A stretch of 62,946 nt of DNA from Pirellula sp. (lineage in GTDB: Bacteria; Planctomycetota; Planctomycetia; Pirellulales; Pirellulaceae), in the NCBI GenBank assembly GCA_031361585.1, contig JANLRK010000672.1, forward strand, positions 1-62,946. The letters are read 5' to 3'. The position numbers were made by a program, and so were the translations under genes. Positions 19,997-30,759 of the stretch are shown here, piece by piece; positions within the stretch are counted from its first letter, which is position 1; each line of letters starts with the position of its first letter. Under the pieces are notes generated by a model. The model searched no databases and was not told the DNA's origin. It saw only the letters and a program-made list of their open reading frames with translations.

Positions 19997-20422
19997 ATGA
20001 TTAATCGAGAACAGCTAATGGGCAATTGGAACGGCGTCGTTGGCTCAATCAAGGAGAAATTCGGTGAGTTTACGAAGGATGAATTGGCCAGGGTTGAAGG
20101 GAATTTTGAACAACTGGTTGGTCTCATTCAACGAAAGACAGGGAATAGTCGGGAGCAGATTTCCTCCTTTATTTCTGAATGCTGTGAGTCGGCCGGTACG
20201 ACATACAGCCAAGTTGCTAATCGCGCATCTCACTATGCGGACGCAGCAGGAGAAATCATTCGAGACAATTACGACCGGGTTGCCAATGAAGCCAAAAAGG
20301 GATTAGATTACACGGCTCAGAATGTCGGTCGTAGACCATTGGAGTCACTTGCGATTGCTGTTGGGTCTGGAATCTTGGCGGGACTCGTTCTTGGGATTTC
20401 CATGACAAGTCGAAAGCGATAG
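19997..20422 (+). CDS. CsbD-family stress protein with ElaB/DUF883-like C-terminal anchor
   Basis: GNW..V.G.IKEKFGE.T.DEL..VEG..EQLVG.IQRKTG; C-terminal RP..SLAIAVG.G.L.GL helix; AGGAG RBS. Confidence 0.88.
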   Translation: MINREQLMGNWNGVVGSIKEKFGEFTKDELARVEGNFEQLVGLIQRKTGNSREQISSFISECCESAGTTYSQVANRASHYADAAGEIIRDNYDRVANEAKKGLDYTAQNVGRRPLESLAIAVGSGILAGLVLGISMTSRKR

Positions 20423-20424
20423 CA

Positions 20425-20865
20425 ATGGAACCATCGAAGCCGACAGGCGATGTGGATGAACTGCTTGCCCGTATGCACCGAGTTCGTGCATCTGGCTACA
20501 ACCATGCCGGCGAGCTTCAAGGTGAAGCGATGCGTTTGGTGGATTGGAAGGAGTACGTTCGCTCCAAACCCCTGATGTCAATAGCGGTCGCTTCACTCGT
20601 TGGTTTTAGTGTTGTTCGGAGCACGCTTGGAACGACATCGCAGGTGAATCCTGCTTTTGCCAACAGCAACAGCACTTTAGAGAATTCAAAGCCAAGTAGA
20701 TCAAGTTGGAAAAGTGCAGCAATTGGCTTGATTGCGAATGTTGCGTCCACTGCCGCGAAACACTACTTGGCATCGTTTTTACAACCGCACAAATCAGAGG
20801 GAGGTTTCAATGATCGATTTCGCAACACAGGTTCGAAAGAACAGAGTATTCGATCCGCCCCGTAA
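20425..20865 (+). CDS. Hypothetical protein (stress operon)
   Basis: Starts 2 bp after the csbD stop; DWKEYVRSKP plus a hydrophobic helix. Confidence 0.65.
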   Translation: MEPSKPTGDVDELLARMHRVRASGYNHAGELQGEAMRLVDWKEYVRSKPLMSIAVASLVGFSVVRSTLGTTSQVNPAFANSNSTLENSKPSRSSWKSAAIGLIANVASTAAKHYLASFLQPHKSEGGFNDRFRNTGSKEQSIRSAP

Positions 20866-21031
20866 AGAAGAAGACAAACAATTAGATTCTGTGGTCTCAA
20901 GCGAAAATGACAGCGCCAAGTCGGACCTTTCGGATGTGGCGAGACGAGTTGTTTCGTCTAGTCCAGCAGCATGTGTTGCGTTGGCTTTCGTGTTTGGAGG
21001 GATCTTAGGATGGTTGACATGGAGAAGATAA
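20810..21031 (+). CDS. Small tail-anchored membrane protein (ElaB/YqjD-like C-terminus); start reassigned to ATG 20810
   Basis: GGAGG RBS; C-terminal P.ACVALAFVFGGILGWLTWRR. Confidence 0.7.
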   Translation: MIDFATQVRKNRVFDPPRKEEDKQLDSVVSSENDSAKSDLSDVARRVVSSSPAACVALAFVFGGILGWLTWRR

Positions 21032-21453
21032 ACCAAAAGTACCGACATGCAGATCCCGTGACTCAATTCACGGAAACGGCTGGTCGGTTTGCATGTGATC
21101 TTATGGAATTGACGGAACTCCAGGCTCGATTGTTCAAGGCGGACGCACGCTCCGTTTTAAGCAAGTCGCTTGGTGCTATCGCTCTGGGAGTGGTTGGATG
21201 CTCGCTATTGTTGGGTTCCATCCCAGTTGTTGTATACGGTTTATCATCAGCTGCTGCCTACTACTTGCAGATTGATGAGTGGGCAGCGCAACTTGCGGTT
21301 GGTGGCGGACTAGCATTATTGAGCTTAATACTCATTGTTGTGTCGTTCAGGATTTTGTCGAAATCCACAATGCAATTCCACCGCAGTACTGCTGAATTTT
21401 CGAAAAATATGGAATGGACAAAGGACGTCATTCGAAACGTCTCTGCAAAATAG
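21010..21453 (+). CDS. YqjE-like / 'phage holin family' two-TM membrane protein
   Basis: DL.EL.ELQARLFKAD followed by two TM helices; typical position in csbD/elaB clusters. Confidence 0.7.
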   Translation: MVDMEKINQKYRHADPVTQFTETAGRFACDLMELTELQARLFKADARSVLSKSLGAIALGVVGCSLLLGSIPVVVYGLSSAAAYYLQIDEWAAQLAVGGGLALLSLILIVVSFRILSKSTMQFHRSTAEFSKNMEWTKDVIRNVSAK

Positions 21454-21493
21454 TGTCTGTTTTTTTACTGTTAACTACTAGGAGTCAATTGAA

Positions 21494-21718
21494 ATGGCAA
21501 GATCTGCTAACGAACAGCGTATGGCTAAGTATCCCAGCAACATGGGAGACCACAAAGTCGTGACGAATTCATGTGAGACACAACTCGAAGACTTCGAGGT
21601 GCTTGTAGGAGACCTACGAGACTCGTTAGGAGAGTACTTGAAAAAACGTCCGCTTGTCTCCTCGGGACTGGTGTTTCTGGCAGGATTCTATGTTGGTTGG
21701 AAAATCAAACCTTGGTAG
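21494..21718 (+). CDS. Small ElaB/DUF883-like tail-anchored protein
   Basis: AGGAG RBS; EY.KKRP....LVFLAGFYVGWKIKPW tail. Confidence 0.7.
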   Translation: MARSANEQRMAKYPSNMGDHKVVTNSCETQLEDFEVLVGDLRDSLGEYLKKRPLVSSGLVFLAGFYVGWKIKPW

Positions 21719-21777
21719 TTCGCAATTAGCGAGCAACGATAACGAACCGCAGGGTAACGCGGTAACGCTGCGGTACT

Positions 21778-23688
21778 TTGCATCAGTTCAACCGAGGAGT
21801 TTTGACTTTGTGGCCTTGGATTGGATTTCTAATCTTCATTGTACTGATGCTGGCATTGGACCTTGGCTTGTTCAATCGCCGGCCACACGTTATCGGAATG
21901 AAAGAGGCACTTGCCTGGTTCGGTGTCTGGATAGGCCTAGCGATAGTTTTCAATATCGGCCTGGTGATATTCCATGAACGTGGCTTGGAGGCGGGACTGG
22001 AGTTTTTCACTGGATTTCTCGTTGAGAAATCCCTAAGTATCGACAATGTTTTTGTTTTCGTTCTCATCTTCAACTACTTTCAGGTGCCGCCTGTTTTCCA
22101 GCATAAAATCCTTTCGTTAGGGATTGTTGGTGCCATTGTTTTACGGCTGATCTTTATTATTGGAGGACTAGCACTTCTCCATCGATTCCACTGGACCATA
22201 TATCTCTTCGGTCTGTTCTTGCTTGGGACCGGACTGATGATGATGGTCCGACAGGAGAAAGAAATTGATCCGGGAAAAAACTGGGCTATCCGGACACTTC
22301 GCCGCTTTGTTTCGGTGACCGAAGGTTACGAGAACGCTAGTTTTTTCATTCGCAAAAACGGACGGCTATGGGCGACTCCTATGTTCATCGCGCTGCTGTC
22401 CATTGAAACTTCCGATATCGTTTTTGCCACGGATTCCATCCCAGCTATCTTCGCGATCACATCAGACCCCTTCATTGTGTTCACCTCGAATCTCTTTGCA
22501 ATGCTGGGGCTGCGGGCATTGTACTTTGCCGTCCAAGACTTCATGAAAATGTTTCATTTCTTGAACAAGGGATTCGCATTGATCATCATTGTCCTTGGCG
22601 TCAAGATGTTGATAAGCGATATTTACGAATTCCCTATTTCCTTCTCGCTTGTATTGATCGTATTCATTCTTTTGAGTTGCGTCATTGCATCGATTCTGCG
22701 GCCTCGCAAGTCGGATCTGAAGCAACTATTTGAACGAACAGAACAACTAGGTCTGATTCCATTTCGGCGACTGTTGTTGATCGAGAATATCATCGACCTC
22801 GGCGAACGCAAGGTAAGTGGTTCAATGCGATGCAAAAGTGGCGTGCACGTAATTCGTCTCGATGTTCCCTGGGCCGAAAATCTCCGAATGATCAGGGAAA
22901 CACACTATTCGCGATACCCTCTGGTTGAGGAATTAGGCAGTAAGCCGTTAGGTTTTATCCACATTAAGAGCATATCGTTCGACGACGCATTGGAATTCGC
23001 TTCCGCGGATCGACTGGTTCCTTTGGCTCGCAAATGCCTAGAAATGCCAGACGATTTGCCGCTTGAGGAAGCGCTGGGACTGTTCCAACGACGGTACGAT
23101 CGGTTGGCGCTCGTGGTCAATGCCAGTGGAGATTGGACAGGCATCCTGACTTTTGAAGATGTGGTACAAGAGATCATCGGTAACATGGGGGACGAATTCG
23201 ATCGAGCGCGTGCGGGCGATTTTGTATCGTTGGTCGACGCTCTAAGCCCTGGGCGCATCGTACTTGGTCTGCGAGCTGATTCAATGACCGAGGCGGTTCA
23301 AGAGTTCCTTGCATGCATCCCGAGGGAAGAACTTCCAATAGACGCCGCCGCAATTTCTCGAATCGTAATGCAGCGCAAAAAATTCATGCCAATGTATGTT
23401 GGAAATGGATTGGCTATTCCCCACGGGCGTTTCGACGGAATCGAACGTCCAGTGCTTGCCTTTGCGCGCTGCGATGAAGGGATACCAATTGAAGACTCGA
23501 ATGAGCGTGCAAGTCTGATCTTTCTGCTGTTGACACCAAGCCGATCAGCTCGACTGCAAACTCGTTTGATTGCTAATATCAACGGCCTATTCAAAAGCGA
23601 ATATGTCTCGGAACGCCTTCGCAAAGCACAGACCCCCGAAGCAGTAATAGAAGCAATCCATGCCGGCCAGCAGGTAGCCTTGGACTAG
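21778..23688 (+). CDS. TerC(Alx-type)-CBS pair-PTS EIIA domain fusion; start probably TTG 21802/21808
   Basis: LALDLG, EFFTGFLVEKSLSIDNVFVF, ETSDIVFATDSIPAIFAIT.DPFIVFTSN (TerC); HYSRYPL...GILTFEDVVQEIIG..DEFD (CBS); GNGLAIPHGR (EIIA phospho-His). Confidence 0.9.
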   Translation: MHQFNRGVLTLWPWIGFLIFIVLMLALDLGLFNRRPHVIGMKEALAWFGVWIGLAIVFNIGLVIFHERGLEAGLEFFTGFLVEKSLSIDNVFVFVLIFNYFQVPPVFQHKILSLGIVGAIVLRLIFIIGGLALLHRFHWTIYLFGLFLLGTGLMMMVRQEKEIDPGKNWAIRTLRRFVSVTEGYENASFFIRKNGRLWATPMFIALLSIETSDIVFATDSIPAIFAITSDPFIVFTSNLFAMLGLRALYFAVQDFMKMFHFLNKGFALIIIVLGVKMLISDIYEFPISFSLVLIVFILLSCVIASILRPRKSDLKQLFERTEQLGLIPFRRLLLIENIIDLGERKVSGSMRCKSGVHVIRLDVPWAENLRMIRETHYSRYPLVEELGSKPLGFIHIKSISFDDALEFASADRLVPLARKCLEMPDDLPLEEALGLFQRRYDRLALVVNASGDWTGILTFEDVVQEIIGNMGDEFDRARAGDFVSLVDALSPGRIVLGLRADSMTEAVQEFLACIPREELPIDAAAISRIVMQRKKFMPMYVGNGLAIPHGRFDGIERPVLAFARCDEGIPIEDSNERASLIFLLLTPSRSARLQTRLIANINGLFKSEYVSERLRKAQTPEAVIEAIHAGQQVALD

Positions 23689-23990
23689 ACTTTGCCGAAT
23701 ATAGCGCCTAAGGCGAGCGGCAGGAGTTGGTTTACCGTAGCTTTGGCCGCTGGCCCGAGTTTCGCACGGCCCAGGGGGCTAGGCTTCTGTACCAAATAGG
23801 AGAGTACGAGCAGGGCGAGTACTAGAGATCCTCATTTTTTCTTGAGTCACAAATAGTCCTAGGAGAAGGAATTTTTGCATTTGTAGTTGACGTCCCCCCG
23901 AGGATGTTTGTTACTCTGGATACCAGTAGAACTTAAAAACAGTCAGCTCTCCTCGCTTCGACAGACTTCACCTCGAGTCGATTAAGTAAA

Positions 23991-26657
23991 ATGCAGCCAA
24001 GCAAACAAAATAAATCTTGGGGCGCTAGTAAGATTGTTACCTACGTCGTAACGGTTGCCGCAGTGGCTGTGGCGGGTCTAATTCGCTGGCAGCTTGATCC
24101 ACTGTTGGAAGTCCGTCTCCCGTTCGCCACTTTCTTCGTCGCCATTATTTTTTCCGCCTGGTACGGTGGGCTTCCCCACGCACTTCTTTCCACCGTGCTG
24201 GGCTCCTTTGTCGTAATGTACTTTTTTATTCCTCCACGCTTTGCGTTGCCGTTTATGACGGCGGCGGATTTGGGAGACTTGGCCGTTTACTACATAGTCG
24301 GGCTTTCGATCGCCGGCTTCGCGGAGGCGCTGCGAATTTCGCAGCACGGATTCGCCGAGCAAGCGGAGCAAGTTAGGACGACGCTTGCCAGTATCGGCGA
24401 TGCGGTCATCACAACAGACATCAAAGTACGCATCACGAATATGAACGCCGTCGCCGAGTCGCTAACAGAATGGACCAACGCCAACGCGATTGGTCAACCT
24501 CTCGAAAAGGTGTTTCATATCTTAGATGCTGTCACGCGGAAGACGCTTGAGAACCCTGCCATCAGGGCATTGAGGGAAGGCGTCACCGTCGGTTTGGCGA
24601 ACCACACGATTCTCGTAGCCAAGGGTGGCAAGGAATATTACATTGATGATAGCGCCGCCCCGATCATAAATAAAGATGGCGAAGTCCGTGGCTGCGTGCT
24701 CGTTTTCAAGGACATAAGTCATCGCATGCAGGCCGAAAAGTTGATGCGAGAAAGCGAAGCCCGGAAGACAGCGATGTTCGAGGCCGCCCTGGACGGTATT
24801 ATAAGCATCAGTCAAGAAGGAACAATCATCGAGTTCAACGCTGCCGCAGAGCGCATTTTTGGTTTCCAACGCGCTGAGGCGATTGGTAAGGAACTCGCAG
24901 GGCTGATCATTCCGCCTGCGTATCGGGAACGTCATCGAAAAGGCCTTGCCCAATACCTCATTACCCATCAAGGATCGGTATTCAACCAACGACTTGAACT
25001 ATCCGCGATCCGTGCAAATGGTGAAGAGTTTCCTGTCGAATTAACGGTGACACCCATTCCCGTTGACGGCCCAGCTCAGTTTACCGCATACTTGCGTGAC
25101 ATAACGCAACGTAAACAATTCGAGAAAGCGCTTCGCGAAAGCGAAGAACGATTTCGCGCACTCGCTGACAATATTCCTCAGCTCGCTTGGATCGCTGATG
25201 CAGATACCGACGGTCAGATCCATTGGTTCAACCGAAACTGGTTCGAGTACACCGGGACCAATCTAGAGGAAATGAGAGGCCGTGGATGGATTGCGGTTCA
25301 TCATCCCGATCATGTCGATAGGGTGGTCCAGAAATTTTCACATCACGTCAGGGAAGGATTGGACTGGGAGGATACATTCCCATTGCGTGGCAAGGATGGC
25401 CAGTACGTTTGGTTCCTGTCACGTATGAAGGTCATTCGCGATAAATTCGGCCGGGTCGTGCGGATCTTTGGCACCAACACGGATATCACCGAAGCAAGGC
25501 GAACAGGTGAGGAACTGCGAAAGCTCACAGCCGAACTTTCGGAGGCCGATCAACGTAAGGATGAATTCTTGGCAACCTTGGCTCACGAACTTCGTAACCC
25601 ACTAGCGCCTATCCGCAATGGTTTGCAAGTTCTCGGTCTTGCGGGAGACGACAAAGTGACAAGCGAGGTTGTCCGCACGATGATGGAACGGCAGCTCGAG
25701 CAGATGGTGCGGTTGGTCGATGACCTTATGGATGTGAGCCGTATCTCTACCGGAAAAGTCGAACTCAGGAAAGAAATCGTATCACTGGCCACGATCGTGA
25801 ACAACGCCGTGGAAACCAGCCATCCACTAGTTGAGGAAATGCGACACGAACTCACTATCCAACTACCTGAAGCCACGATTCTGGTTGATGTCGACTCGAT
25901 CAGGCTGTCTCAAGTCATCATGAACCTGCTGAACAACGCCGCCAAGTACAGCGATCCTGGAAGTTGCATCCAGCTAACTTCCGAACGATCCGGAGGCGTT
26001 GTGGTGGTTTCGATCCGGGACACAGGCATTGGTATTGCAGCTGACCAGATACCCCATCTTTTCGATATGTTCTCTCAGGTAGATCACTCGATGGAGAAGT
26101 CGCAAGGCGGGCTAGGGATCGGACTCTGCTTGGCGAAGCGAATCGTAGAGATGCACGGCGGTACAATCGAAGCACGCAGCGACGGACTTGGCAAGGGAGC
26201 CGAGTTTCTCGTCCGACTCCCTGTTGTTGTTGAGAATACCGCGACGCATTTGCATTCAGAAGAACAAAAGCAAGTTATAAAATCAAATTTTCGCATTTTA
26301 ATTGTTGATGACAACAAAGACGGTGCAGGCACGTTATCCATGATGCTGAAGATCCTCGGCAACGACACACGCACCGCTTATGATGGCGAAGACGCGGTCA
26401 ATACAGCGATCGCATTTCAGCCCGATGTCATCTTGCTCGACATTGGTCTTCCAAAGTTGAACGGCTACGAAGTTTGCCGCCGCATCAGAGAACAAAAGAA
26501 CGGGCACAACATACTCGTTATCGCCCAAACCGGCTGGGGGCAGGAGGAGGATCGTCAACGCACACGCGACGCTGGATTCGATCATCACCTGGTTAAGCCG
26601 GTAGACATGGCCGTTTTGAGTAAAATACTTGCAGAATTTCAAAGCCAGAAATCATGA
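23991..26657 (+). CDS. Hybrid sensor histidine kinase (DUF4118-like TM, 3xPAS, HisKA, HATPase, REC)
   Basis: TM helices with AWYGG; SIGDAVITTD, FNAAAERIFG, HPD PAS motifs; LAHELRNPL, NLLNNAAKYS, GLGIGL, LDIGLPKLNG. Confidence 0.93.
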   Translation: MQPSKQNKSWGASKIVTYVVTVAAVAVAGLIRWQLDPLLEVRLPFATFFVAIIFSAWYGGLPHALLSTVLGSFVVMYFFIPPRFALPFMTAADLGDLAVYYIVGLSIAGFAEALRISQHGFAEQAEQVRTTLASIGDAVITTDIKVRITNMNAVAESLTEWTNANAIGQPLEKVFHILDAVTRKTLENPAIRALREGVTVGLANHTILVAKGGKEYYIDDSAAPIINKDGEVRGCVLVFKDISHRMQAEKLMRESEARKTAMFEAALDGIISISQEGTIIEFNAAAERIFGFQRAEAIGKELAGLIIPPAYRERHRKGLAQYLITHQGSVFNQRLELSAIRANGEEFPVELTVTPIPVDGPAQFTAYLRDITQRKQFEKALRESEERFRALADNIPQLAWIADADTDGQIHWFNRNWFEYTGTNLEEMRGRGWIAVHHPDHVDRVVQKFSHHVREGLDWEDTFPLRGKDGQYVWFLSRMKVIRDKFGRVVRIFGTNTDITEARRTGEELRKLTAELSEADQRKDEFLATLAHELRNPLAPIRNGLQVLGLAGDDKVTSEVVRTMMERQLEQMVRLVDDLMDVSRISTGKVELRKEIVSLATIVNNAVETSHPLVEEMRHELTIQLPEATILVDVDSIRLSQVIMNLLNNAAKYSDPGSCIQLTSERSGGVVVVSIRDTGIGIAADQIPHLFDMFSQVDHSMEKSQGGLGIGLCLAKRIVEMHGGTIEARSDGLGKGAEFLVRLPVVVENTATHLHSEEQKQVIKSNFRILIVDDNKDGAGTLSMMLKILGNDTRTAYDGEDAVNTAIAFQPDVILLDIGLPKLNGYEVCRRIREQKNGHNILVIAQTGWGQEEDRQRTRDAGFDHHLVKPVDMAVLSKILAEFQSQKS

Positions 26658-26796
26658 CGATTTCCCCATCTGTGCGCGGTAGATGAGACTGCTGCGATGA
26701 TCGAATGTCTACCAAGTTGGACTTAAAACTTCCAAAGAAGCGTTCCTGTTACTGATCCAATTGAAACAACCGTACAGCCCGACAGTGCCATTGTCT

Positions 26797-26829
26797 ATTC
26801 GAGAAGACCATTCGAGAAGACCATTCGAG
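26797..26829. repeat. 13-bp tandem repeat x2.5 (ATTCGAGAAGACC)
   Basis: attcgagaagacc attcgagaagacc attcgag read directly. Confidence 0.85.
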
Positions 26830-26865
26830 TGACCTTATTAAGTTTGGTTGAAATCGGATGGAATT

Positions 26866-26880
26866 TGGCGCAGCTTTTGC
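26866..26880 (+). promoter_or_regulatory. sigma54 -24/-12 promoter motif
   Basis: TGGCGCAGCTTTTGC = GG-N10-GC, 76 bp upstream of the yciF-like gene. Confidence 0.75.
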
Positions 26881-26956
26881 TTTCCACGGCAGCAGGCGAG
26901 TCTACTAGTTTACGTGGTCGCCAAGAACACAAATCCCTTTCAATCGGAGTTTACCA

Positions 26957-27445
26957 ATGCCACTTAACGACCTCGCGGACCTTTTTCAGGATGAATTGCG
27001 TGACATCTTGAGCGCAGAACGCCAACTTATCGAGGCTCTGCCAAAGATGGTGCAAAAGGCATCAAGCGATGATTTGAAACAAGCATTCGAAAAACATCTT
27101 GAGCAAACGCGCGTTCAAGCGACTCGAGTCGAGAATGCGTTTGCCGATACAGGCAAGTCTGCACGAGCTAAGACATGTGAGGCCATGAAGGGTCTGATCA
27201 AAGAAGCATCGTCCATGATGGAGGAAAAAGCCGCTGCAGACGTAATGGACGCCGCCTTAATTGCTTGCGCCCAAAAGGTTGAACACTACGAGATTGCAAC
27301 GTACGGGACTCTTTGCACTTGGGCGCGGCTTCTCGGCTACACGGAAGCTCTTGAATTGCTCAAGCTGAATCTTAACGAAGAAGAAGAAACGGACGAAGCC
27401 CTATCAGCACTCGCTGAGACCATCAATTCTGAAGCTCGAGCTTAG
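26957..27445 (+). CDS. YciE/YciF ferritin-like protein (DUF892)
   Basis: [56 protein letters not shown]. Confidence 0.93.
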
Positions 27446-27706: not shown

Positions 27707-28068
27707 TCCAAATCGAGATCCCCATCAAAATGCTTCATCCGACCCGTCGTCCTTGAGCCAAAGAACGGAACCTCGCAAGTCCATCAAGAAGCAGCGGACA
27801 TGAACGTCCCACATCTCCGAATCGCCGAATTCGGAAATCTTCATGGCACAATGAGAGGCAATTTCGTCTCGCAACTGAAATGCGAATTTACGATGGTCCT
27901 CTTCTTCTCGTTTTAACTCGATGGGAGTATCACCGTATTTCCATCGTCGATTTTCGTGTAGCGGCGAGGGCGAATTGTGTTCTAATCTGTCGAGGTGACG
28001 CCATGGACTTGCAAAGATGAATTCATGGGAATTCAATCTAAACTATTGCGATAGCCTGCAATATCACC

Positions 28069-29091
28069 GTGTGGAGTTTACCATCCTTGTCTGACCTATC
28101 AAAAGCCGACCGACGGCGTTTGACCGATATTCTGGCGCCGTGGATGTTCGGTTGCTCGCTGGCTTTTTTAGCTCTTGTAGCGGCGATTGTTGTTTTAGTG
28201 ATCGATGTCCCTCGCGTCAATGAGGCAATTTCCAACAGCGAAGAGCCTATGAAACTGGTAGAGATCGAACAATTGGCGCTCGATCGCGAATTGGCCTATG
28301 AAGCCTTGTCGCATCGATGGGGAACCCCAATTGGCATGGTTATGCTTTGCTTGTGGCCCGTGTTCGTGGTGGAATTGGTGAAAGACTTCTGGCTACGCGA
28401 TAGAAGCCAATCTTTTCTAGAACAACATAAATTCGCATGGCTATTTTGCCTTTTCCCGCCCTTCCGGCTTTGTCGACGTGACCAAAACCAAACGGGGCAA
28501 ATTTGGTTTCCAATTTGGGGCTGGCAGAAAGTCGACTATTATCTCCGCAAGAGGCTTGAACGGGCGTTCAGCGTCCCAATGATTTTTGTTGCAATACTAA
28601 TTTTGCCAGTGTTGATATTGCAATTTTTTTACGCACAACACGTCGCAGAATACCCATGGCTTAGATTCGTTTTGCATTTCAGCGCGGGGCTAATTTGGTA
28701 CTGCTTTGTGTTGGAATTCATCGTTATGGTCTCGGTCTCGCAAAGCAAGTTCAAGTACTGCAAACAGCATTGGCTTGATCTGTTGATTATCCTCCTACCG
28801 CTGGTCTCCTTCCTTCGGACGCTTCAATCGATAAGGACGTTGAAGCTTATGAAAGCTGCCAAGTTGCAGCAGGTCGCCAGACTCGTTCGGGTTTATCGTC
28901 TACGTGGACTCTCGATGCGTGGTTTCCGTGCCCTGCTGCTGCTTGAAGTTGTGAATCGCGTGGTACCTACATCCAACAAGAAACGCCTTGCGCGCCTTCG
29001 GGACGAACTCGAGGAGAAAGAACACGAAATCGAAGACCTTCGAAAGCAGATAGCGGCGTTGGAATTGACTTCCGAGCGGGCGAAAACATAA
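28069..29091 (+). CDS. Voltage-sensor-like (Ion_trans S1-S4) membrane protein without a pore domain, with C-terminal coiled coil
   Basis: S2-like W..F..EF, S3-like HWLDLLII, basic residue at every third position in S4; no TxGYG filter; heptad-like C-terminus. Confidence 0.75.
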   Translation: MWSLPSLSDLSKADRRRLTDILAPWMFGCSLAFLALVAAIVVLVIDVPRVNEAISNSEEPMKLVEIEQLALDRELAYEALSHRWGTPIGMVMLCLWPVFVVELVKDFWLRDRSQSFLEQHKFAWLFCLFPPFRLCRRDQNQTGQIWFPIWGWQKVDYYLRKRLERAFSVPMIFVAILILPVLILQFFYAQHVAEYPWLRFVLHFSAGLIWYCFVLEFIVMVSVSQSKFKYCKQHWLDLLIILLPLVSFLRTLQSIRTLKLMKAAKLQQVARLVRVYRLRGLSMRGFRALLLLEVVNRVVPTSNKKRLARLRDELEEKEHEIEDLRKQIAALELTSERAKT

Positions 29092-29181: not shown

Positions 29182-30759
29182 ATGACAGACCCAGCGCCAG
29201 CCAATGAGAAACAATCATTTATGGACGTGGCCACGGTTCGACCTGGTGCCTCAAACGACTACATTGCTATAGGTCGCGGACTCTCGCCGGGGAAGAAAGT
29301 CAATGGTTACACAATTCTCTCAGAAGTCGCTCGAGGCGGAATGGGCGTCGTCTTTGTAGCACAACATGACAAGATGGAGCGACGCGTTGGGATCAAGACG
29401 ATGTTGATCAGCGCACACGGCCAATCATGTGATCGACAAAGATTCGACGTTGAAGCACAGGCGGCCGCTAAATTGGATCATCCGGGAATCGTCGCCATTT
29501 TTGAAGTGGGCGAATATGATTGTGACCCGTATTTGGTGATGGAATGGATAGAGGGCGACAATCTGGCGACGCGTTTGAATAAAGGTCCTCTCTCAGTTGA
29601 AGGCACAATCCGAATCGGGATCGAAGTTGCCGATGCCATTTCGCATGCCCATCTCCGCGGGGTAGTGCATCGTGACTTAAAGCCGGCGAACATTATTTTG
29701 GACCGCCAACAAAACGATCGGGCGATCATCACGGACTTTGGAGTCGCTAAGTGTATCGAGACTGTACGAGGAGGATTGACAACCGCGGGCGAACCAATAG
29801 GAACGCCACACTACATGCCCCCAGAACAAGCCGATAGTTCGCGAGGCGTCGTCGGACCGGCCTCCGATATCTATTCGCTGGGTGGATTAATGTATGCAAT
29901 GCTCACTGGCCGCCCTCCCTTCCAGGCAGCTTCGTCAATCGACGTGATTCTTCAAGTTTTGTCGAACGACCCAGTACCGTTGCGAAAACTTAATCCGACG
30001 CTGCCGGCCGGATTAGAAGCCATCGTCATGAAGTGCCTCCAAAAGGATGCAAGAAGAAGGTACAAGTCTGCCGCCGAGCTATCGCTGGACATCCAGCATT
30101 TTCGAGATGGCAAACCAACCCTTGCTCGCCCACTAAATTCATGGCGTTGGTTAGGGTATCAAATCCGGCACCATGTTTTGTTTGCAACGGTATCCGGTTC
30201 CAGTGTGTTATTGTTGCTTCTCGCAACGGTGGCGATGGCGTTTGCGTACGCAACGTCCCTGGCGGAGCTTAGGACGCTCCGAGTGGAATTGATAATGCTC
30301 CAAGAGGAAAAAAAAGGATTAAACGATGTGATTCAAAACGAAAGAAAAAACTTTCGAATGCAATTGTCGCGACTGCAAAATCGTGAAGTTACAGAAGCCG
30401 AGTTCCATCTGGAACGGCAATCGAAGTATGCGGAGTCCATTTCAATAAAGGACCCAAACCTAGCAACGCGTTTATGCATTGAAACGATAAGACTGGCTGA
30501 AAAAGAAAGGCTGGCACCGCCAGCGTTTTGTGTTGAATGGCTTCGAAGCATTTTACCTCAAGGAAGTGAGGTTCTTCTTGCGAACGCGATCAAGAACGCG
30601 TCGCCAATGGAATTGGCAACCCTTGCTGAAGCGAGGCTAAAAGCAACACTCAGTTTAGAGTCCCAACGAACGCATGAAATTACCGTTGCCGGCGTAGTAC
30701 CGTCGTTCGAACCTCCCCGTCCGCCTTCGGACGCAAATCAAAGCGTGAAGCCGCAATAA
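29182..30759 (+). CDS. Membrane-anchored Hanks-type Ser/Thr protein kinase
   Basis: RGGMGVV, VGIK, HRDLKPAN, DFG, GTPHYMPPEQ, SDIYSLG; TM segment then coiled coil. Confidence 0.93.
   Translation: MTDPAPANEKQSFMDVATVRPGASNDYIAIGRGLSPGKKVNGYTILSEVARGGMGVVFVAQHDKMERRVGIKTMLISAHGQSCDRQRFDVEAQAAAKLDHPGIVAIFEVGEYDCDPYLVMEWIEGDNLATRLNKGPLSVEGTIRIGIEVADAISHAHLRGVVHRDLKPANIILDRQQNDRAIITDFGVAKCIETVRGGLTTAGEPIGTPHYMPPEQADSSRGVVGPASDIYSLGGLMYAMLTGRPPFQAASSIDVILQVLSNDPVPLRKLNPTLPAGLEAIVMKCLQKDARRRYKSAAELSLDIQHFRDGKPTLARPLNSWRWLGYQIRHHVLFATVSGSSVLLLLLATVAMAFAYATSLAELRTLRVELIMLQEEKKGLNDVIQNERKNFRMQLSRLQNREVTEAEFHLERQSKYAESISIKDPNLATRLCIETIRLAEKERLAPPAFCVEWLRSILPQGSEVLLANAIKNASPMELATLAEARLKATLSLESQRTHEITVAGVVPSFEPPRPPSDANQSVKPQ

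Follow-up and report, generated by a model that had tools for sequence, protein, structure and literature searches.

In the excerpted text of PMC13095418 and PMC12332018, only eukaryotic uses of a voltage-sensor domain (VSD) without a pore are named, and the corresponding part of a 2023 review (PMC10377628) states that all prokaryotic VSDs are accompanied by a pore. Hv channels are likewise reported to be absent from prokaryotes (PMC10377628, PMC13095418). Hv1 itself lacks the S5-P-S6 region and carries a short coiled coil after its VSD; two of its features, the mid-S1 aspartate D112 (PMC13095418) and the S4 motif RxWRxxR (PMC10377628), were used here as tests. SLC9C1 and the voltage-sensing phosphatases also contain a VSD without a channel pore, and the long S4 of SLC9C1 ends in cytoplasmic helices (PMC13095418). 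TMEM266 (C15orf27/HVRP1) is described in excerpts of PMC6392501 as a non-conducting sensor with a valine (V111) at the D112 slot.

By analogy, it is TMEM266 that the family reported here most resembles in its presumed working plan. With TMEM266 as described there, the family has in common, by layout and residues, a pore-less S1–S4, the F/E/D triad, a non-polar D112 slot and a C-terminal coiled coil, whereas S4 of TMEM266 contains three charges (Arg) and its disordered tail comprises ~250 residues (PMC6392501), against mostly six to nine in-register charges and a median tail of 59 residues (maximum 190) in the family. Unlike TMEM266, the family is bacterial, possesses an extra degenerate VSD repeat with a hairpin, and has a coil that appears to be antiparallel.

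The window, i.e. the whole 62,946-nucleotide stretch of Pirellula sp. DNA that was analysed, harbours one gene of this family. With a probability of about one half, its product is a non-conducting, TMEM266-like bacterial sensor of membrane voltage, in which the movement of S4 would be relayed to a coiled-coil oligomer predicted to be antiparallel. The family is conserved and apparently undescribed, and would represent a new prokaryotic pore-less voltage-sensor protein of tandem layout; judged by titles and the beginnings of abstracts, the full-text literature outside subscription journals on pore-less or prokaryotic VSDs yielded no earlier description of it.

Gene, family and tandem layout

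All motifs quoted in the preliminary description for the ORF at 28069–29091 were found in its translation. The features of the locus are listed below, with residues numbered, as throughout the text, from the GTG at 28069 and not from the TTG at 28087.

28069..29091, + strand: gene of the pore-less tandem voltage-sensor-domain protein, 340 aa counted from GTG
28073..28089, + strand: GGAG ribosome-binding-like site and likely true TTG start (sequence, 334-aa database entry, starts of relatives)
28108..28479, + strand: degenerate N-terminal VSD repeat, residues 14–137 (hhalign, NaChBac match, VIA, conservation)
28498..28530, + strand: WxPxxGW beta-hairpin linking the two units, residues 144–154 (conservation, model strands)
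28537..28809, + strand: S0–S3 of the complete VSD, residues 157–247 (conservation, hhalign, model comparisons)
28810..28899, + strand: long S4-type run, residues 248–277 (three-residue phase)
28900..28965, + strand: conserved helix R-x-R-G-x-x-x-R-x-x-R-A-L-L, residues 278–299 (conservation, homology alignment)
28975..29070, + strand: four-heptad coiled coil, residues 303–334 (heptads; presumably antiparallel, from the 311/332 charge swap)
29182..30759, + strand: Hanks Ser/Thr kinase (Pkinase match), an incidental neighbour outside the system

Since the GGAG (28073–28076) lies ahead of the TTG at 28087 and the database entry for the protein is 334 aa long, this TTG is probably the true start, giving 334 aa instead of 340; relatives begin at the TTG site too. 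No plasmid match was found for the sequence, and no RNA holder is listed for it.

The family is large, mostly single-copy and centred on Planctomycetota. A word-index search returned 444 relatives among 6690 candidates of 187–595 aa, while a complete HMMER run yielded 331 clusters at 50% identity with a cut-off of E≤1e-30, rising to 523 with 1e-10, the best 150 of 1288 matches (203–572 aa) being examined. In GTDB, 207 stretches encode a relative; 80 loci were kept, 78 of them labelled Planctomycetota and two unlabelled. Twenty of 301 evenly sampled Planctomycetota genomes carry the family, with one full-length copy each. Members beyond the phylum comprise a Verrucomicrobiota-dominated Atlas cluster, P0246 of Pseudomonadota and P0221 of Magnetococcales. 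In P0246 (572 aa) the whole unit is doubled again (profile 11–223, then 11–306), resulting in four S1–S3-type repeats and one coiled coil. The family matched no dedicated Pfam or NCBIfam model, and its members are labelled in the sources as hypothetical or as “potassium channel protein”. SLC9C1 and the voltage-sensing phosphatases carry a fused transporter or enzyme, whereas none was seen in the family members examined: enzyme fusions were absent from the 150 best representatives (203–572 aa) and, in what is a weak test, from 736–2100 aa (the word-index searches spanned 187–595 and 736–2100 aa, 596–735 aa being left out).

The earlier suspicion that the N-terminal half is a degenerate duplicate was borne out for S0–S3 by the hhalign comparison of the two halves (88.7%, E 2.6e-6), a value which drops to only 34% with a shallower alignment. 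The N-terminal half also aligns with the VSDs of bacterial 6TM channels (hhalign 94.8%, E 5.4e-8) and, weakly, with residues 3–95 of NaChBac (E 0.021). It consists of S1', a variable loop, S2' with W96/F99/E102, and a short S3' ending in PPxR133; position 102 is D/E in 99% and position 133 R/K in 100% of sequences. The S3 Asp is absent and S4' is a stub, ending after a single conserved Arg ahead of the WxPxxGW hairpin, whose strands span residues 144–147 and 151–154 in the AlphaFold model. Because the half ends after one Arg, the topology would require a re-entrant S3' stub. The weaker co-variation pairs D46-H203, L93-P196, F132-L238 and F129-L239 (DCA, z 4.4–6.1) suggest contacts of the first unit with S2 and S3 of the second, this packing being read from aligned ranges and co-variation only.

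The complete voltage-sensor domain and its S4

The C-terminal half matches the VSD group of bacterial 6TM channels with an hhalign value of 98.8% (E 8.5e-17; 98.4% in another alignment). At E≤0.05, Pfam Ion_trans recognises 49 of 150 members (lowest E 1.1e-5), and the nine next-best matches in the phylum sample are 6TM channels aligned over the VSD only. To judge from these profile comparisons, both halves are homologous to the voltage-sensor domains of bacterial 6TM channels, and the protein is a member of the VSD superfamily.

The closest VSD sequences among the 301 Planctomycetota genomes belong to the 6TM channels L103, L104, L106 and L107, with filters of the TLGSQ/TMGSE/TMGTD type, and to the RCK-type channels L105 and L108–L111. 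These channels share with the family the S0–S1 “LExPM” start and a long Arg-rich S4, but carry S5-P-S6, whereas the family has none and has S0–S3 duplicated. For L103 (1099–1983, − strand), L104, L106 and L107, with their non-canonical filters and long S4, there are at least 6549 homologues; in L105, L108, L109, L110 and L111 the 6TM part is joined to RCK, and the filter region is devoid of GYG (TLVSLQP, TVLAGEP, LVATEP).

In ~150 diverse members the charge-transfer triad is represented by F213 (100%), E216 (99%) and D237 (83%), the E-to-D spacing of 21 in the family being that of E746/D767 in SLC9C1 (PMC13095418, in excerpt). I178, Q185 and P244 are the other marked residues of the complete VSD. 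At position 185, 201 of the 345 sequences have E, 104 have Q and 19 have D. The D112 slot was assigned to position 178 by counting seven back from E185, in the manner of N691/E698 of SLC9C1, and is I or V in 337/345, in line with the previous remark that S1 has no equivalent of Hv1 D112. The copy in the window has Q185 and A206, both neutral, so that its own sensor would be left without an outer acidic counter-charge, a point that counts against a sensor function.

The S4-like run reported earlier was found as described: read by threes, residues 250–277 give R-Q-R-K-K-K-Q-R-R-R, and all eight basic residues of 248–277 fall in one three-residue phase (P about 2e-5). The periodicity is conserved in the family as well. 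Counted from P244 to R277, the spacing is divisible by three in 311 of the 321 sequences that could be parsed (29 others, of 350, could not), with classes of 24, 27, 30 and 33 residues. Basic residues occupy 73% of the in-phase S4 positions, as against 0.8% and 0.1% out of phase, and 300 of the 321 sequences have six to nine of them in phase. Insertions and deletions in threes, combined with in-phase charges, constitute the strongest argument that S4 still threads the charge-transfer centre.

Predicted structures are confident for S0–S3. The full-length AlphaFold model (pLDDT 85, pTM 0.82, residues 251–280 only 54–66) superposes on channel VSDs in S0–S3 only: VIA placed residues 154–255 on S0–S3 of Cav2.2 (Z 7.2, rmsd 3.0, 96 residues) and residues 8–148 on NavAb-VS2A (Z 6.6) and TPC1 (Z 6.4), with unrelated outer-membrane channels scoring higher (Z 7.3–7.4). 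Foldseek gave nothing relevant for this model, while for the model of the C-terminal half (pLDDT 79.5, but 57–66 from residue 263) 47 of the top 50 rows were VSD-bearing by title; neither model obtained a Foldseek match at E≤0.001. SLC9C1 was the best-fitting fold (Foldseek probability 0.87, rmsd 2.7, 82 columns; rmsd 2.7–2.9 over 82–107 residues overall). VIA aligned the C-half model end-to-end on Kv4.2 (Z 8.6, rmsd 5.0, 132 residues), with Z values of 8.0–8.6 for this half tied with those of unrelated helical hairpins. In the C-half model the S4 slot is filled by residues 269–298, a register ~13 or more residues later than homology suggests; homology places 278–299 at the S4–S5 linker of channels.

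The label “Hv1-like architecture” of the preliminary description holds in so far as there is no pore and the VSD is followed by a coiled coil; it fails in that there are two tandem VSD-derived units, the coil looks antiparallel, and the closest relatives found are bacterial 6TM channels. Membership in Hv1 was rejected: RxWRxxR occurs in 0/345 sequences, and D/E within residues 169–184 in 1/345, so the family differs from Hv1 by the missing S1 Asp and S4 motif as well as by its two units.

These residues also bear on the question of whether protons or cations pass through the sensor domain itself by way of a gating pore (omega-type current), for which in-register neutral gaps, Q253 and Q268 among them, might provide a path in one of the states. 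A VSD of Shaker without its pore gives omega currents and HCNL1 passes protons through its VSDs (PMC13095418, in excerpt), Q occupies position 268 in 54% of the diverse sequences, and the genome itself has no detectable intact K-channel pore gene. Nevertheless, the acidic residue in the S1 core and the RxWRxxR motif are missing as stated, the D112 slot is hydrophobic, as in the non-conducting TMEM266 (PMC6392501, in excerpt), and in most members S4, with six to nine basic residues in register, would be apt to block the gasket, which makes conduction unlikely.

Absence of a pore and genomic surroundings

As had been noted for this copy, S4 is followed not by S5-P-S6 but by a hydrophilic coiled coil, and the same is true of its homologues. 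A profile built from 16 channel pores matched 0/345 members, no flanking ORF of the 80 loci and none of the ORFs of the own genome; in a control it found 11 ORFs, most of them from its training set. TxGYGD was present in 0/82 matching ORFs (80 loci plus the window), whose tails past the profile are ≤90 aa, and a looser filter motif in one of 267 proteins. In 148 tails, hydrophobicity did not exceed 1.35 in any 19-residue window, and the chain is hydrophilic beyond residue 299. With no pore in 345 members, truncation of this one copy can be dismissed. A decaying truncated potassium channel might be suggested by two broken copies (L043 and G041) and by database names of the kind “potassium channel protein”; yet the same layout recurs in 331 clusters at 50% identity and invariant residues fall in both halves of the protein, and given this conservation across the family the idea is refuted, its chance being practically negligible. 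The claim of a stand-alone pore-less VSD with a coiled coil is thereby supported at the level of the whole family.

A pore could still be supplied in trans, the protein being the sensor half of a split channel that gates a separately encoded pore-only K+ channel. Split Eag1 and hERG still gate (PMC13095418, in excerpt), and an Ion_trans_2 gene occurs elsewhere in 33 of 34 tested carrier genomes, in some of them in short pore-only frames; in G023 and G117, both of one genus, the pore gene lies 8–9 kb from the family gene. However, pore genes are common anyway (104/121 genomes of the order; 3/5 of the further carriers checked) and none lies in the flanks of the 80 loci. The incomplete assemblies G394, G420 and G422 gave no pore-gene match, nor did the own genome (99% complete) match Ion_trans or Ion_trans_2. 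The latter retains a K-channel-like remnant (G000:C520:10030-10392) with an internal stop, cut before the pore, the small gene being intact in G418, G419 and G421. The sensor gene is intact in the own genome, in contrast to the pore-type gene, which is broken and without its pore half, and a split channel appears very unlikely.

The co-directional gene 90 bp downstream (ATG 29182) does encode a Hanks-type Ser/Thr kinase, as proposed (Pkinase, E 6e-43), and the arrangement is shared by L001 and L002. Signalling through this kinase, in the manner of a two-gene voltage-sensing phosphatase, had been put forward, with conservation of the linkage among homologues as a check. The linkage is not conserved: of the 72 loci with enough flank for the count, only 2 have a co-directional kinase as the next gene downstream, those of the relatives 89% and 92% identical, and a kinase of any position or strand occurs in the flanks of 8/80 loci. 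The own genome contains 77 kinase-motif ORFs. The partnership is largely refuted by these synteny counts and must be considered highly improbable. No other conserved neighbour emerged, the biggest cluster turning up in 17 of 81 regions (the window and 80 loci), with neither distance nor strand constant. Promoter-like sites are at chance level; terminator-like sites number 9, as compared with 4.8 ± 2.2 after shuffling, and the stretch separating gene and kinase contains none of them.

Upstream, at 19997–27445 of the window, lies what we take to be a stress-type cluster, presumably of small CsbD/DUF883-like genes, a TerC-CBS-PTS-EIIA-like fusion and a PAS hybrid histidine kinase. A DUF892 match was obtained within it, and the cluster is not syntenic with the gene in relatives. 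A 103-aa ORF (27725–28036, − strand), divergent from the gene and without a Pfam match, has a counterpart only in L002 among the five closest loci.

Coiled coil and proposed mode of action

Residues 307–331 form a clean a/d heptad. The top pair of a mean-field DCA (345 sequences, effective 269) is 311-332 (z 21), two positions 21 residues apart in one predicted helix, and the pairs 318-325 and 314-328 have the same index sum. Of the 238 sequences charged at both 311 and 332, 236 have opposite charges there, either way round (124 and 112 sequences), and on a tree computed with the coil left out the swap is borne out by 13 of 14 independent pairs (p 0.0002). Neither four parallel g-e' pairs, used as controls, nor intrahelical controls gave a charge signal, and charge pairing at 318/325 was not significant (median p 0.18). 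By the rules of coiled coils, charge pairing of two e positions indicates an antiparallel oligomer. The coil is therefore inferred to be an antiparallel (head-to-tail) oligomer, on the strength of one strongly supported pair, 311/332; a staggered filament would be another reading of the same pairing. The coiled coil of Hv1, by comparison, is parallel, and matches to it (3vmx, E 1.8; 3wkv, E 0.13) ranked below unrelated coiled coils and are regarded as compositional. Comparison with the post-S6 coil of the channels likewise showed no significant homology (hhalign 5.4%), so that a loss of the pore by simple internal deletion is not proven.

An antiparallel coil would also suit a membrane scaffold or tether that does not sense voltage: the coil would connect subunits, or membranes facing each other, and the basic run would attach to anionic lipid. 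Membranes of Planctomycetes are extensively invaginated, and S4 is poorly placed in both models. Lipid binding, however, needs neither indels in exact threes (311/321) nor a near-invariant F213/E216/D237, and such a role is quite unlikely.

For the non-conducting voltage sensor, the following scheme may be proposed. A 6TM channel would have lost S5-P-S6 and duplicated S0–S3, after which the first unit, packed on the second in place of the pore, could serve as a fixed buttress, with R133 of its re-entrant S3' stub held by E102. Upon a change in membrane potential the long S4 would slide through F213/E216/D237 and pull on helix 278–299, thereby altering the coiled coil or a partner bound there; such a partner, if any, is not encoded nearby. 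Helix 278–299, at the place of the S4–S5 linker, is the likely output element, and voltage is likely to be reported via the predicted head-to-tail coiled coil rather than by the neighbouring kinase. It is a tentative proposal, with odds somewhat below even, that the family is a prokaryotic stand-alone sensor: a pore-less tandem-VSD protein, descended from a bacterial 6TM channel by a route separate from Hv1 and TMEM266, which converts potential into a mechanical change of an antiparallel coiled-coil oligomer. If true, Planctomycetes could couple membrane voltage directly, with no channel involved, to cell signalling or to the organisation of their membranes.

The hundreds of members filed under labels like “potassium channel protein” constitute a counter-example to the notion that prokaryotic VSDs are pore-bound. 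Should they sense voltage, bacteria could read their membrane potential without passing ions, a small expressible model would become available for the unexplained vertebrate sensor TMEM266, and the S4 spacing classes would provide a natural length series (24, 27, 30, 33 residues) for the scaling of gating charge with S4 length.

A further planctomycete protein, of 1363 aa (L082:4468–8559, + strand), contains a VSD-like segment (Ion_trans profile positions 4–122 only, E 0.0023), no pore match and a large unannotated remainder. Its relatives, mostly in frames of 1300–1600 aa, were found in 23 of 151 genomes belonging to the class. This type, in which L082 itself was checked for a pore, is possibly a second pore-less VSD family, and its presence in the same class would suggest that such proteins have originated repeatedly.
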